64,000 nucleotides of DNA, taken from an uncultured Nitrososphaerota archaeon (GTDB taxonomy: Archaea > Thermoproteota > Nitrososphaeria > Nitrososphaerales > CADDZS01). Of the stretch, positions 21,001 through 24,000 are shown one piece after another. Position numbers: made by a program. The stretch is from contig CAWCYI010000004.1 of the NCBI GenBank assembly GCA_963799845.1, positions 1,760,001 to 1,824,000 on the forward strand. Direction: 5' to 3'. How positions within the stretch are numbered: the first letter of the stretch is position 1; each line of letters begins with the position of its first letter.

Positions 21001-24000
21001 TATTGTGCTACCTTTGGGTTCTAAGATCAGAGTGCACTCTATTAAATTTCTGGAAAGACATTCCCCTTTATAGGAGAGCAAGGTTTCTTACTCTCAGAAT
21101 TTAAGCCTGAATTTCTCGAGGAAAATTTGTATGACCAGTCTGCAAATGCACAAGGCGTGTCCAAAAAGTCACGATATCACTCAATGATTATATTTTTCGG
21201 AGAATCTCAGGTATAGAGCACGTTGAGTAAGAGAGGCTACACCGACTACCATGAGAGGATACCGCCGGGATGGCGTATAGCTCCAGTCGATCGCTGGCCG
21301 ATCAACAATCACGATTCGGGTCAAACGCCAAATTTCGATGTAGGAAAGTGGAGGTTCAGGACGTATGGTGAAGTAGAAAACCCACTCGACATAACGTATG
21401 AAGAATTCCGGAATCTTCCGCATATTACAAAGACGCTTGACCATCACTGCATCGATGGTTGGAGTTATCTCGGTCAGGTGTGGAACGGCGTCGACATTTC
21501 CGTCATAAAGGAAAAGACAAAAGTCCGGAAAAGTGCTTGCTACATTTTGGTTGAGAGTAGCCAAGGTCTGAGCCAGACGTTTCCAATAGGCCAGGATCTC
21601 TTGCTTGCGGATGGCCAGAATGGGTCAGTCCTGCCGAGACCCGCCGGGTATCCGCTGCGGATAGTGGCTCCAGGAGAATTCGGAATGAAAAGCACGAAGT
21701 GGGTTGAGAAGATCAAGTTTTGCAGCGAGCGGGAAGTCGATGCACTGGATAGGATGGTCATGCAGAACGGCCTGTACGAATTGTACTCCGAGAAATTGAG
21801 TGACTTCAATCCATGGACTGTCGATAATAAAGAGAGAAAGAAATTTCTCTGCAAGAATTTCGCCGCTGGAGTCGAGGCGGTGAGGTTTAAGAAAAAGCAG
21901 GAATTTCTCGACAGTAACGATGCGATCTCTTCAGAAACTTTTGCACTTTGCAAGCTAGGCGACCTAAAGGAGAATGCAGGTTCAAAGTTTGTAATTAACG
22001 GAAACGAGATTCTTGTGGTAAAGTCAGGGAACTTGATCTACGGGGTAGAGCCAATTTGTCCTCACCTTGGTTCAGATTTGTCTCGCGGAAGGGTCAACTG
22101 CGATGCCAAAACCGTCAAATGTCCCTTGCATGGCGCGGTGTTTGATATTGCTAGTGGGACATGCCTAAGCGGCAGCTATGGATGCGACGGCGATACTTTT
22201 CCTCCAATCCGAACTTACCGGATAAAGGTAGAATCTGATACCGTATTCCTTGAAAGAAATCAGGAATGGGGAACGATTTAGGACAGGTTGAACGCGCTGG
22301 GACTGACAAGCTTTATGAGCTTCCTCAGACAGCCACTTCTCCGCGACCGGGATCTTGAAGACCTTGCAACGATTGCCGTACCTCAACTGATCTGTCGTTA
22401 TTGGAAGAAGAGATTCTAGATCGTGGATTGAAATTATCTGGGGCGTGGCGACGATCGTCTCTTCATTCTGCTCGAGTATGCGCTTGGCAATCAGAAACTC
22501 GTTCTGGAACAAGATCTTGAGTTTCTGGTCGCGATAGTGATCAATCCCTTCTATCAAAACATGGCCGATCGCAAAGCCCCTGAGATTGAATCTCTTCAGG
22601 TCAGTCACCTTCCCAACGAAGATTTCCTTCGCCCCGCATGAGTCGATCAGCGATTGCTCTGCTTCCTTGTTTTTCATCCCTTCGAGAAGCGATTCCCCGA
22701 TGTTTAGGGCGAGGCTGAGCGTGTTGGGGATTGCACTTTTTCTGTATCCAGCGCCATTCATTGGATGGCTGGCTACGCATCCTCGTCCACCCATCGCGAC
22801 GGTTATGGATCTGGCGAGCTTTTCTGTCCATGAATCGGAAAGACCGTTTATGATGACCTCGTTACCCTTCTCGTCGGAAATGCACATCGGGCTTGCTCTC
22901 TGGCCGTAAGCGTTGAAAGTTGTCATCTGAAGCTCGGGAAAAGCTCTTCCTTCTCCATCGCCATCGATTACGGGCAGCTTCACGTAGACCGCATTTATGA
23001 AGGGGACCAGCGAGTTGATCCCTCCGATTTCTGCGGGAGAAAGGTGCGTCGCATTTCTCCCGATGATCTTTTCAAGACTTCTGGTCGACCTCGCATACTC
23101 GGTTCCCGCGGGAATCTTTTCAACGCCGATCGTGGGCGATCCCATGCCGGCAATGCAGAAAGAAAAATGTGAATCATCGATTTCATCGAAAGGCGTAACC
23201 TCCAGCTCCTCGACTTGGAATCTTTCCATCGCTGATTTTAGAAGAAGCGCGCCAAGGTACGGATTTCCGCCCCCTCCTGACCCGAGGACAGCGCTGCCAA
23301 GCGCGAGAGAGTCAATGTTTGATTTTCTGAATTTCCTGAGCTCAGATCTCATGCAGTAGTCATGATTCCTTCAGACTAAGTCTACCTTTGAAGGACGCCT
23401 GACCATAAGAAAGAAGAAAGTGTATCCTTCCTTATGATTGGGAGGATAGATTGAGGTGTCCTTCGGAGCCTATGATTTGTAATACACGTTGTACAGACCG
23501 TACTCAAAGCTGGGACCCAGGGAATAGGTGTACCCGCCGACGTGCGGGGACAACGCCACGAAGTACGGGGCAATGTCCAGGTATACATCCACGTAATTCT
23601 GAGTGATGTCTGTCTGGAGCTGGTAGAAGTACTGCTGTCTCTGGGCGTCGTTTATTGTTGTCCTCTCCTGTGTAAGAAGGCTATCTACAGTTGAGTTGCT
23701 GAACCACTCCATGGAAATCCACGTGCCGTGAGCTGAAGATGAATACGGGGAGTAGAGCAACGAATCAACATCTGGATAGAAAGGCAGGAATTCGATGATT
23801 GTAAAGTCAGGCGTCGAAGTAACATTCGCTGCAATCTGAGTGACGGTAAGGAACGTTTGGGGCTGGATGTTTACCGTGACGCCGATCTGCCCCAGATCCT
23901 TCTGGAATTCCTCGGCTATCTGTTGTTCCTGAATGCTGCCCTGGACATACACTATAGTAAGAGCTTGAGCACCCGGGTTGACTCCTGAACTAGTAATCGC

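Follow-up and report, generated by a model that had tools for sequence, protein, structure and literature searches.

Among the genes in the 64,000-nucleotide stretch of archaeal DNA that we analysed (the window), one appears to combine a molybdenum domain of the sulfite-oxidase (SUOX) fold with a Rieske iron-sulfur domain. This raises the questions of whether such an architecture is real, which way electrons would flow between its two centres, and on what kind of substrate the protein could act.

A molybdenum domain and a Rieske domain in one reading frame

The gene and its putative promoter element lie at the following positions.

21223..22281, + strand: the complete gene, encoding a Mo domain of the SUOX fold, a helical arm and a Rieske domain (ORF list, Pfam)
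21188..21197, + strand: putative TATA-like box TTATATTTTT, read from the sequence some 30 nt ahead of the TTG start

Translation from the TTG start gives 352 residues (the coordinates include the stop codon), and the N-terminus, MSKRGY..., aligns with the N-termini of homologues. The initial annotation had placed two domains on this reading frame, and Pfam finds both: Oxidored_molyb (PF00174; residues 33-170, E 1.5e-25, 90.2 bits against a cut-off of 24) and Rieske (PF00355; residues 240-316, E 3.4e-13, 49.7 bits against a cut-off of 20.3). Neither Mo-co_dimer (PF03404) nor MOSC or MOSC_N gave a Pfam match at E 0.01 or better, and the Pfam search returned no haem domain; the Rieske domain occupies the place of the dimerisation domain. 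AlphaFold2, fed with a 42-sequence alignment, reproduced the earlier confidence values for the fused protein (pLDDT 92.3, pTM 0.86), as VIA-align did the earlier structural matches, and in the model a single helix, residues 202-231, joins the two domains. Foldseek found no solved chain that spans both (TMq 0.40 or less). The annotated architecture, a SUOX fold lacking dimerisation and haem domains, a long helix and a dioxygenase-type Rieske domain, is real and conserved, and we hold it, together with the pairing of its predicted cofactors, with high confidence.

The 352 residues of the protein include no transmembrane segment (maximum KD19 0.88), twin-arginine motif, export signal or hydrophobic segment. 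Upstream, a divergent intergenic region of 141 nt contains the putative TATA-like box TTATATTTTT, called by the spacing rule for archaeal promoters. Judged by its position in the sequence, the box would yield an mRNA with little or no leader; it might just as well belong to the divergent gene of the creatininase family. A bacterial promoter and terminator scan, which is not applicable to archaea, gave sites no more numerous in this region than in shuffled sequences.

The description of the protein as a self-contained Mo enzyme can be kept only in part. A built-in one-electron carrier is indeed present, but self-sufficiency is overstated, because such a carrier still depends on a donor or acceptor from elsewhere: no gene for a reductase or other redox partner adjoins the fused or split forms at the loci examined.

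Fused and split forms of the module

The homologue search gave the same counts as reported before, 46 clusters, 43 of which have both domains. The genome itself carries a paralogue (G000:C3:39711-40781, - strand), a 366-residue ORF with both domains that is 70% identical. The earlier picture of a family of fused proteins captured a genuine clade, but the family is not fused only, and a larger set of relatives has adjacent genes. At 24 of 36 loci examined, a Mo protein (~230 aa) and a Rieske protein (~120 aa) are separate ORFs, and in 18 of these 24 the genes share a 4-nt stop/start overlap, ATGA or TTGA, in the Rieske frame. The split relatives stand at 43-53% identity. The fused forms make up one clade (support 100/97) in a tree of 48 rows built from Mo columns only, and in the alignment an additional linker, whose length varies, joins their helix to the Rieske domain. 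The fusion is a derived or sister form of a two-gene Mo-plus-Rieske module; most relatives appear to encode this module as two translationally coupled genes, with one fusion or fission event separating the forms.

Because the relatives' genes overlap by 4 nt, one missing base would join them, and the fusion could in principle be a frameshift or assembly error. However, both domains occur together in 43 of 46 clusters from independent sources, so the architecture is not an assembly artefact; moreover, the fused forms group in one well-supported clade, their linkers differ in length, and two fused copies only 70% identical reside in one genome. We regard the chance of an artefact as negligible. 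The converse error, split forms as frameshifted versions of a fused gene, was also considered and rejected: the in-frame NTGA junction is the same at 18 loci, which come from many samples, and the Mo ORFs have a common end point.

The carriers are soil Nitrososphaeria, and one of them (L010) is assigned to a genus that does not oxidise ammonia. A Nitrososphaerales archaeon was said to be the only organism name on record, which proved incorrect, as two Thaumarchaeota MAGs and one MAG labelled Thermoplasmata are on record too. A search of the source genome for AmoA gave no match, but it is uninformative, since the control was likewise silent in all 14 genomes. The sequencing runs found were four soil-metagenome DNA runs from one study, with no RNA run among them. 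The ESM Atlas gave no usable match. None of 1,586 candidate longer proteins (617-2000 aa) contained the module, for example beside a reductase domain, at E 1e-5 or better, which is weak evidence.

A candidate YedY-like molybdenum site

The N-terminal half of the protein contains the following features.

21319..21732, + strand: molybdopterin-binding domain Oxidored_molyb, residues 33-170 (Pfam)
21448..21450, + strand: codon of Cys76, presumed Mo ligand, in the invariant motif DHHC-x-DGW (conservation and YedY alignment)

The structural match of this domain extends over about residues 16-209. Aligned with VIA-align to SoxC, SorA, SorT, YedY, and chicken and plant sulfite oxidase (SO), it gives Z scores of 17-20 over 161-181 residues (2xts_A 19.9; 2ca4_A 19.1; 1xdq_A 17.1 over 181 residues; 1sox_B 17.0), and Foldseek matches range from E 6e-13 to 1e-9. 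The segment GYPLRIVAPGEFGMKSTKW lines up with the Moco-binding segment of plant SO. Cys76 is invariant in all 42 fused sequences, and its equivalent is present in 18 of 18 split Mo subunits. Previously, Cys76 was taken as the Mo ligand from motif likeness; a gap-free profile alignment now pairs it with chain residue 102 of YedY (1xdq), and PMC11194511 gives Cys102 as the Mo ligand of YedY. Cys76 is the predicted attachment point of a molybdopterin-Mo cofactor in the N-terminal domain, and the genome encodes MoaC, MoaE and two MoeA proteins.

The same fold can bind pterin without molybdenum, as in PruR, in which case the protein would be a sensor or carrier and no enzyme. The structures 7kos, 7rkb and 7kou do match residues 40-167 (VIA-align Z 13.9-14.3). 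In PruR proteins, according to PMC11194511, a Trp replaces the Mo-ligand Cys, the hairpin is truncated, and a secretion signal is present. In contrast, in our family the Cys is invariant across 42 fused and 18 split proteins, the hairpin is full-length relative to YedY, and the window protein has no signal. The genes for making Moco are at hand in the genome, and the redox cluster that our models dock on the site would speak for catalysis. We consider a molybdenum-free role highly improbable.

The loop that follows Cys76 reads C-I-D-G-W-S and lacks Arg, and SoxC differs from the family at the Mo-Cys loop by a 12-residue gap in the profile alignment. SO enzymes have an Arg-bearing loop after the Mo-Cys. 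An invariant Asn28 stands opposite the substrate Arg of plant SO, in a weak, low-scoring stretch of the alignment. As far as sequence motifs can tell, the Mo site of the family is YedY-like and not sulfite-oxidase-like.

These comparisons bear on the direction of catalysis. The protein could be a cytoplasmic dehydrogenase that works oxidatively on sulfite or another reduced oxyanion, in which case Mo would take two electrons from the substrate, and the Rieske centre would pass them singly to a soluble acceptor or the respiratory chain; precedents are the haem in SorAB and SoxCD and the Rieske subunit in arsenite oxidase. The best structural matches are indeed sulfite and sulfane dehydrogenases (2xts_A and 2ca4_A), the top NCBIfam match is SoxC (E 1.4e-12), and sulfite is reducing enough even for a low-potential Rieske centre. 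However, the equivalog scores fall far under their cut-offs (SoxC 47.3 against 420, SorA 28.6 against 600, SorT 22 against 570). The dimerisation domain, which in chicken SO contributes one sulfite-binding Arg, is missing; the post-Cys loop is of the YedY kind and not the Arg-bearing loop of SO; and Asn28 would replace the substrate Arg of plant SO, subject to the poor alignment there. Gene context, discussed below, adds a point on either side. Overall, we think an oxidative role unlikely.

The helical arm, the Rieske domain and a modelled interface

The C-terminal half of the protein comprises an arm and the Rieske domain with its two cluster-binding boxes.

21742..21915, + strand: family-specific helical arm, residues 174-231 (DSSP on the model, conservation)
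21931..22278, + strand: Rieske [2Fe-2S] ferredoxin domain, residues 237-352 (Pfam, VIA-align)
22057..22065, + strand: first cluster-binding box, C279-P-H281 (conservation)
22120..22131, + strand: second cluster-binding box, C300-P-L-H303, followed by G-A-V-F (sequence and conservation)

The arm is made of two short helices, an NPWTVDN motif and one 30-residue helix (H174-181, H185-191 and H202-231 by DSSP on the model), and its residues P197, W198, L209, F213 and R221 are invariant in the 42-sequence alignment. Stand-alone SUOX relatives cover only query residues ~10-175, and in the split relatives of our family the arm forms the C-terminus of the Mo subunit.

Rieske_2 also matches the C-terminal domain (residues 241-342, E 3.6e-11), and residues 237-352 superpose on the dioxygenase ferredoxin 3gce with Z 15.7 and an rmsd of 1.2 A over 104 aligned residues. 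The nearest solved structures, by Foldseek and VIA-align, are all dioxygenase ferredoxins. Conservation of the cluster ligands, like that of Cys76, stood up in the larger alignment: across the 42 fused sequences C279, C300 and H303 never vary and H281 reaches at least 90%, and the equivalents of C279 and H281, C47 and H49, are kept in all 17 split Rieske subunits. High-potential Rieske proteins of the bc1 type have disulfide cysteines and Ser/Tyr hydrogen-bond donors, which are absent from the low-potential, dioxygenase type. The boxes of the family, CPHLGS and CPLHGAVF, contain no second Cys and no Ser/Tyr pair, a pattern that by this rule would fit the low-potential ferredoxin subtype.

How the two centres might meet was modelled with a split pair. 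The complex reached ipSAE values of 0.74, 0.70 and 0.74 in three runs, with 0.00 for the best of three controls; at least 92% of contacts are common to the runs, with a partner pLDDT of at least 82. The mark applied to such models is reached by 116 of 157 solved complexes and by 2 of 215 mismatched pairs. Neither Foldseek nor VIA-align found a solved complex of this kind that could have served as a template. In the model, the interface comprises Cys73, D75, G76, W77 and arm residues 198-225 on the Mo side, and residues 48-51 and 70-72, around His49 and His71, with a family loop at 85-95 on the Rieske side. The Rieske His-ligand loops face the Mo-Cys loop, a contact between loops and not a distance between cofactors. 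Invariant residues are enriched at the interface (13/30 compared with 42/199 elsewhere, one-sided p 0.01) and only weakly so on the Rieske side (8/25 compared with 17/99, p 0.09). Direct contact between the Mo and Rieske sites is thus probable on modelling grounds, with the arm as the predicted main docking surface for the Rieske subunit in the split relatives. The modelled Rieske module also overlies part of the presumed substrate pocket, N28 included, which may be a modelling artefact or may mean that only small substrates fit.

Gene neighbourhoods and a proposed function

The two fused copies had been reported to share no gene neighbourhood. This holds for the fused forms, which have none in common, but not for the split relatives, and the operon clue therefore comes only from the latter. 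Next to the split pair and on its strand we found genes for CN_hydrolase (12 loci), Zn-ADH (6), acetate-CoA ligase (6) and malate synthase A (3), in at least three gene orders, although these counts overstate independence since many split loci are near-copies. The CN_hydrolase that recurs in the split operons is a double nitrilase-superfamily hydrolase. The window gene adjoins a creatininase-family amidohydrolase and two DUF917 genes, with no cytochrome-b-type gene next to it; the fused locus L093 is surrounded by an amidase, three AstE/AspA-type deacylases, three Amidohydro_2 genes and an isochorismatase-family hydrolase. For the oxidative alternative, this context cuts both ways: a cytochrome b/Rieske gene pair lies ~5.6 kb from the paralogue, but sulfur-metabolism genes do not recur beside either form at the loci examined.

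Another possibility is a prokaryotic enzyme handling nitrate or nitrite, with a Mo domain like that of eukaryotic assimilatory nitrate reductase and a Rieske domain like NirD. The Mo fragment of Pichia nitrate reductase (2bii_A) matches with Z 16.6 in VIA-align, Rieske_2, matched above, is the NirD-type model, and NirD itself (TIGR02378) gives E 2.9e-9, but with a score of 37 under a cut-off of 74.65. One split lineage (L115-L117) has a gene of the nitronate-monooxygenase family, a family that releases nitrite, immediately downstream; this gene, however, scores best as FabK-like, and no nitrate/nitrite transporter or nitrite reductase adjoins any locus examined. Such a role seems improbable to us.

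The reading we prefer is a cytoplasmic oxo-transfer reductase fed through its Rieske centre, an overall explanation to which we give an even chance of being correct. The gene product would be a soluble cytoplasmic two-centre oxidoreductase in which the helical arm clamps the Rieske module with the two exposed loops of its His ligands facing the Mo-Cys loop, so that single electrons could pass directly between cluster and Mo. An outside reductase would load the Rieske centre one electron per step; Mo(VI) would receive two electrons, and the resulting Mo(IV) would take an oxygen atom off a small substrate oxygenated at S or N. Motif rules and the likeness to YedY suggest which way the electrons flow, and we lean only slightly towards reduction; if the substrate were a strong reductant, sulfite for example, a low-potential Rieske centre could alternatively take up its electrons.

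The substrate is likely a small N- or S-oxygenated compound. Reductive oxygen removal is the most likely role because the split operons hold a nitrilase-type hydrolase, acetyl-CoA synthetase, Zn-alcohol dehydrogenase or malate synthase; removal of oxygen from an N-O (or S-O) group may precede C-N hydrolysis and C2 assimilation. We hold an N-O substrate class in particular with low confidence, and the substrates of the two fused paralogues in this genome may be different, though related.

More speculatively, and in our estimation doubtful, soil Nitrososphaeria could have an undescribed pathway, with the module as its catalytic core, that runs from N-O cleavage through a double nitrilase-type hydrolase and ammonia release to C2 assimilation. 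Its substrates might be oximes, hydroxamates, hydroxylamine adducts or nitro compounds that arise around nitrification in acid soil, and the C2 skeleton would be taken up through acetyl-CoA synthetase and malate synthase. If true, this would give a large group of small cytoplasmic SUOX-fold proteins its first function and connect ammonia oxidisers to their heterotrophic relatives in a new way, through organic nitrogen. Since the soil Nitrososphaeria that carry the module are little studied, any defined catabolic function would be informative, and the conserved split operon narrows the search for a substrate.

Comparison with known systems

YedY/MsrP of Escherichia coli (1xdq) shares with the family a SUOX-fold Mo domain without a dimerisation domain and a gap-free Mo-Cys hairpin (C-V-E-A-W-S in YedY, C-I-D-G-W-S here). 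According to PMC5449189, it is a reductase with a separate electron-carrying partner. MsrP is a Tat-exported, periplasmic methionine-sulfoxide reductase fed by the membrane haem-b protein MsrQ, whereas the window protein has no signal or membrane segment and has a Rieske [2Fe-2S] module as partner; the MsrP equivalog NF003767 scores 47.4 bits on the fused protein, against a cut-off of 207. The best structural matches of the Mo domain, SorAB, SorT and SoxCD (Z 17.6-19.9), likewise equip their Mo subunit with a one-electron partner of its own that docks close to the active site, but they are periplasmic, with a dimerisation domain and haem c, and the post-Cys loop of SoxC is 12 residues longer.

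The closest functional analogue is YcbX, which according to PMC10637980 has a Cys-ligated, SUOX-like Mo centre in a MOSC fold and a C-terminal [2Fe-2S] ferredoxin domain, is cytoplasmic, depends on the flavoprotein CysJ and reduces N-oxygenated compounds (N-hydroxylaminopurine reductase). On this account, the idea of joining a [2Fe-2S] domain to a Mo centre with a Cys ligand already has a precedent in an unrelated fold; YcbX differs from the family in its MOSC Mo domain, in a plant-type ferredoxin instead of a Rieske domain, and in a sequence unrelated to ours. Arsenite oxidase, AioAB, also pairs a Mo enzyme with a dedicated Rieske partner, and AioB (5nqd_B) is a weak sequence match of the Rieske part (E 0.0078). 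However, AioA belongs to the bis-MGD DMSO-reductase family and not to SUOX, AioB is exported by Tat and has a Rieske centre of high potential, and the complex is periplasmic and oxidative.

For the Rieske module, the dioxygenase ferredoxins (CarAc 3gce, BphA3 and the NDO ferredoxin 2qpz) have the same fold and ligand spacing, with sequence matches of E 1e-9 to 1e-12. They are free shuttles between reductase and oxygenase, whereas the module described here is joined to a Mo protein, by fusion or through a shared operon, and its loop, G-S/P-Y/F-G-x-D-G-D, is six residues longer than in those ferredoxins and sits in the modelled interface.

The nearest sequence relatives of the Mo domain are small cytoplasmic SUOX-fold proteins of bacteria and archaea (27-38% identity, at least 576 confirmed among 600 pattern matches listed), which have the motif DHHC[IV]DGW in common with the family but lack the helical arm. 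Within 10 kb of 77 of their loci, none of 9,646 ORFs was a Rieske gene of the family (27 matches in the control). Some of these relatives carry cytochrome-b561-like membrane domains, a flavoprotein or pentapeptide repeats. Reviews treat the "single-subunit, cytoplasmic" SUOX-fold group as still uncharacterised, and the family offers a handle on it, with a defined redox partner and a modelled interface.

Enzymes of the SO family contain Mo alone, Mo and haem, or also FAD in plant nitrate reductase, as set out in a 2020 review (PMC7759655). Consistent with the initial annotation, our literature search found no SUOX-family enzyme with a Rieske partner, although the SUOX-fold classification of Workun et al. 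(2008) may mention one; for YedY with a Rieske partner it led only to Sco3746, a haem-b/MoCo fusion (PMC5449189). A Rieske partner, whether separate subunit or fused domain, therefore appears to be a new pairing for the SUOX fold, one that widens the known electron wiring of these textbook molybdoenzymes, and the fused and split forms together provide a natural test of which residues build an electron-transfer interface between Mo and an iron-sulfur cluster.

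Results

A molybdenum domain and a Rieske domain on one ORF

The fused gene, its Pfam domains and a paralogue in the same genome (4.6 Mb in 9 contigs, 86.7% complete) are:

21223..22281, plus strand: Mo-Rieske gene, 352 aa, TTG start
residues 33-170 of its product: Oxidored_molyb (Pfam E 1.5e-25, 90.2 bits)
residues 240-316: Rieske (Pfam E 3.4e-13)
residues 241-342: Rieske_2 (Pfam E 3.6e-11)
C3:39711-40781, on contig C3: paralogue, 366-aa ORF with both domains, 70% identical to the window protein

The TTG start is credible because the first residues, MSKRGY.D, align in register with homologue N-termini. 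The Pfam scan found neither a dimerisation nor a haem domain in the window protein, and NCBIfam gave sub-threshold matches only (SoxC 47 vs 420, MsrP 47 vs 207, HcaC ferredoxin 44 vs 150). A word-index search identified 46 homologue clusters, 43 of which carry both domains. Across 42 aligned sequences C76, C279, C300 and H303 are invariant, and H281 is conserved in at least 90%, with Tyr in one sequence. AlphaFold2 with this alignment gave a model (pLDDT 92.3, pTM 0.86) in which one helix, residues 202-231, joins the domains. By Foldseek and VIA-align, the Mo domain resembles SoxC (2xts_A, Z 19.9), SorA (2ca4_A, Z 19.1), YedY (1xdq_A, Z 17.1) and chicken sulfite oxidase (1sox_B, Z 17.0), and the Rieske domain resembles the carbazole-dioxygenase ferredoxin CarAc (3gce, Z 15.7, rmsd 1.2 A); neither program found a solved chain covering both domains. 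The initial annotation had reported the two domains on this ORF, a second copy in the genome, invariant or nearly invariant Mo-Cys and Rieske ligands, and these fold matches, all of which we reproduced.

The window sequence is present in soil-metagenome runs from one study. An assembly artefact as the source of the joined domains is excluded for practical purposes. Elsewhere the genome encodes three stand-alone SUOX-like genes (C4:251324-251743, C6:230688-231158 and C4:355943-356365, in frames of 208, 238 and 564 aa), with 31-33% identity across the Mo domain, along with several stand-alone Rieske genes.

The two predicted cofactor sites

A family profile searched against PDB sequences placed L-D-H-H-C-I-D-G-W-S-Y-L without gaps onto Y-R-M-R-C-V-E-A-W-S-M-V of YedY, with the Cys on chain residue 102; the same profile required a 12-residue gap against SoxC. 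According to a structural study of PruR, the Mo ligands are Cys102 of YedY and Cys185 of chicken sulfite oxidase, both on a hairpin that in PruR is truncated, with Trp at the ligand position (PMC11194511). The assignment of C76 as Mo ligand, made by motif likeness in the initial annotation, thus gains a basis in this alignment and in the paper naming Cys102, and we regard C76 as the presumed ligand. By its sequence, the Mo site belongs with the short-hairpin type seen in YedY and not with the sulfite-oxidase type. A PruR-like pterin binder, which would have no Cys-ligated Mo, is a less likely reading of a family in which C76 is invariant. The Moco-binding stretch GYPLRIVAPGEFG.KS.KW aligns to plant sulfite oxidase, and the genome encodes MoaC, MoaE and two MoeA. 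Since neither a hydrophobic segment (maximum KD19 0.88) nor a twin-arginine motif occurs in the window protein, we take it to be cytoplasmic, a predicted location unlike that of YedY, which is not cytoplasmic.

The sequences of the Rieske boxes are C-P-H-L-G-S and C-P-L-H-G-A-V-F. Neither box has a second cysteine, and the Ser/Tyr pair is absent too; both features are marks of high-potential Rieske proteins. The near structures found by Foldseek and VIA-align are all low-potential dioxygenase ferredoxins. After the second box CarAc has a shorter loop, whereas the window domain has G-S-Y-G-C-D-G-D-T-F-P-P; this long loop is conserved across the family, in the fused alignment and in Rieske subunits encoded by separate genes.

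Split and fused forms

Relatives occur in a split form, in which the two parts are neighbouring ORFs. Scanning GTDB (one genome per species) with family patterns gave at least 576 confirmed relatives among the 600 pattern matches listed; among these, 3 of 80 kept relatives cover both domains, namely L009 (fused, labelled Thermoplasmata) and L010 and L011 (Thaumarchaeota MAGs). A metagenome scan added 31 loci. Together with the window gene and its paralogue these make 36 loci: 24 split, 9 fused (window, L089, L009, L090-L095) and 3 that end inside the gene (L097, L119, L120). The split Mo ORF, 229-237 aa where its start is clear, terminates shortly past the long helix and is followed by a Rieske ORF of 115-131 aa. 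In 18/24 split loci the Mo stop TGA overlaps the in-frame Rieske start (ATGA in 7, TTGA in 11), and in L115-L117, one lineage, the overlap is 17 nt. Three loci have unusual junctions:

L010 10097-10142: 23-nt tandem duplication exactly at the Mo-stop/Rieske-start junction, repeating the ATGA overlap
L114 1192-1306: one TGA after the Mo ORF, with the Rieske part beyond it in an unchanged frame
L118 3080-3186: irregular, with a gap of about 100 nt before the Rieske part, whose frame differs from that of the Mo ORF

L102 and L103, near-identical to L010, have a single copy of the 23 nt; the duplication is either genuine slippage or an artefact of assembly. L114 and L118 are related split loci whose irregularity could reflect mutation (nonsense or frameshift), read-through or an error in sequencing.

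A split Mo subunit as query gave 44 matches at E 1e-40 or better, about 25 being Mo-only clusters of 200-266 aa; one is named Nitrososphaerales archaeon and one represents 110 member sequences. In 18 split Mo subunits and 17 split Rieske subunits no ligand varies. For a tree we used Mo-domain columns only (75 rows, 216 columns, IQ-TREE LG+G4), excluding near-identical loci, partial genes and fragments. All 48 of 48 fused rows form one clade (ultrafast bootstrap 100, SH-aLRT 97), and therefore one event separates the fused and split forms. The 19 split rows are sister to this clade or paraphyletic (64/31), with stand-alone Mo proteins as outgroup. The NTGA junction and the outgroups, which have Mo alone, make fusion through stop loss the simpler reading, with a root too weak for proof. 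L009 (3532-4677) is the sole fused copy whose genome bears neither the Thaumarchaeota nor the Nitrososphaerales label; its 5.8-kb contig belongs to a MAG assigned to Thermoplasmata. In an earlier tree it lay deep within the fused clade beside the homologue P0042, a placement due to either transfer or mis-binning.

Predicted docking of the two parts

We modelled the split pair of L102 as a complex, with a separate alignment for each subunit, three runs and three controls. The complex scores (ipSAE) were 0.74, 0.70 and 0.74, the best control scored 0.00, the runs shared at least 92% of contacts, and partner pLDDT was at least 82. In the benchmark for this score, only roughly valid with our own alignments, 116/157 solved complexes and 2/215 mismatched pairs pass. 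Foldseek and VIA-align found no similar solved complex that the model could copy.

The modelled interface comprises, on the Mo subunit, residues 16-30 (with P26, N28 and T29), Cys73, D75, G76, W77, Y79 and a helical arm (198-225), and, on the Rieske subunit, residues 46, 48-51 and 70-72, in the loops bearing His49 and His71, and the family loop 85-95. Invariant positions are more frequent at the interface than elsewhere on the Mo side (13/30 vs 42/199, one-sided p 0.01) and weakly enriched on the Rieske side (8/25 vs 17/99, p 0.09). The distance between the cofactor sites had been left open in the initial annotation; the split-pair model answers this in part, as the His side of the cluster is predicted to face the Mo-Cys loop. 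Because fused proteins retain the arm residues R/K-K...L...F...R and the loop G-[PS]-[FY]-G-x-D-G, the window protein likely docks in the same way, and its pTM of 0.86 implies a fixed domain arrangement in the model.

Gene neighborhoods

The fused genes (window, paralogue and L093) have no context in common, in line with the earlier remark that the two paralogues share no neighborhood. The window gene is flanked by a divergent creatininase-family amidohydrolase on one side and two DUF917 (S-Me-THD-like) genes on the other, with a peptide-type ABC transporter, two luciferase-like monooxygenases and a 2-hydroxyacid dehydrogenase nearby. The paralogue lies upstream of an HTH-methyltransferase, near LigD genes; L093 follows an amidase and is surrounded by AstE/AspA-type deacylases, Amidohydro_2 genes and an isochorismatase-family hydrolase.

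Around the split pairs we clustered and mapped 239 ORFs, counting those that adjoin the pair on the same strand. The counts are not independent, as many loci are near-copies of each other.

Recurrent same-strand neighbors of the split pair
about 600 aa, two CN_hydrolase domains: 12 split loci
365-aa Zn-alcohol dehydrogenase: 6 split loci
642-aa AMP-forming ligase: 6 split loci
539-aa protein: 3 split loci
344-aa protein: 3 split loci, one lineage

The double CN_hydrolase representative best matches archaeal nitrilase (309 bits, under the cut-off of 500). Other representatives are an acetate-CoA ligase (710 bits vs a cut-off of 657), malate synthase A (796 vs 594.5), a class-III-like alcohol dehydrogenase (under cut-offs) and an NMO/FabK-like flavoprotein. 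Gene order varies among subclades (hydrolase-Mo-Rieske-ADH, ACS-Mo-Rieske-hydrolase, Mo-Rieske-hydrolase-ADH), which argues that the linkage is under selection. No recurring reductase or cytochrome was found among neighbors of the examined loci.

Several features of the window surroundings are recorded here. The convergent DUF917 gene (22165-23352, minus strand) overlaps the 3´ end of the Mo-Rieske gene with its own by 117 nt (22165-22281); its last ~48 residues lie outside the Pfam match (172-347 of 395), have no counterpart in the other DUF917 copy, and may come from reading through the end of a shorter gene. In the ABC transporter, the second ATPase is split between ORF 28146-28691 (ABC_tran 2-118 of 137) and ORF 28759-29139 (oligo_HPY C-terminal region), which suggests a frameshift or disrupted gene at 28146-29139. 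Luciferase-like monooxygenase genes of one similarity cluster lie near the family gene in the window (15536-17348, two copies) and in L120 (2-481); with only two loci, this may be chance.

Reach of the pairing

In a 50%-representative library, 6 of 4,978 matches reached E 1e-30 or better, with a single full-length representative. Among the 150 matches listed, 23 were Pfam-scanned and none joins the two domains; their architectures are Mo alone or with a cytochrome-b561-like or other membrane part, a dimerisation domain, a flavoprotein or pentapeptide repeats, and three Rieske domains. The matches P0088, P0051, P0131 and P0081 include a 694-aa flavoprotein (Pyr_redox_3)-Mo fusion, a cytochrome-b561-like membrane part with Mo, Mo with pentapeptide repeats and a 362-aa triple-Rieske protein. 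The family Rieske HMM (E below 1) found nothing in 9,646 ORFs of 77 stand-alone-Mo loci and 27 matches in the family's own loci as control. The protein was absent at E 1e-40 or better from 400 other sampled genomes of the same class, 350 of them at least 90% complete. L010 comes from Ca. Subgagatemarchaeum, a soil thaumarchaeon that does not oxidise ammonia; the main text of the paper on it contains none of the words sulfite, molybd-, Rieske or nitrilase (PMC10640624).

Discussion

Two presumed cofactor sites are conserved across this family, as is their fused or two-gene arrangement, and in the passing complex model the sites lie face to face. We propose that electrons from some reductase would enter via the Rieske centre and reduce Mo, and that Mo(IV) could then take oxygen off a small substrate oxygenated at S or N, in the manner of YedY and the MOSC enzymes. 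The YedY-type site, the lack of sulfite-oxidase features and the low-potential-type Rieske boxes favor this reductive direction; the main rival is an oxidative, sulfite-type dehydrogenase. The C-N hydrolases beside the split pair, L093 and the window gene, with the acetate/glyoxylate assimilation genes, point to nitrogenous C2-type substrates as a lead, not a result. A nitrate/nitrite role appears less likely.

For some homologues both domains are already given by automatic annotation; new here are the recognition that these proteins form a family, its occurrence in a split as well as a fused form, the model of the interface and the operon. Text searches for the initial annotation had found no published SUOX-family enzyme with a Rieske domain. 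Within the literature searched, which leaves aside the 2008 SUOX-fold classification, we likewise found no SUOX-fold enzyme with a Rieske partner in print, and the available part of a review agrees (PMC7759655). For the uncharacterised cytoplasmic SUOX proteins, the Mo-Rieske family provides a concrete point of entry.

Each element (the fold, the two cofactors and the principle of tethering a one-electron carrier) is known already, and it is their combination that is new. In function the nearest analogue is YcbX, whose Cys-ligated Mo centre is joined to a [2Fe-2S] ferredoxin; YcbX receives electrons from CysJ and reduces N-hydroxylated bases (PMC10637980).
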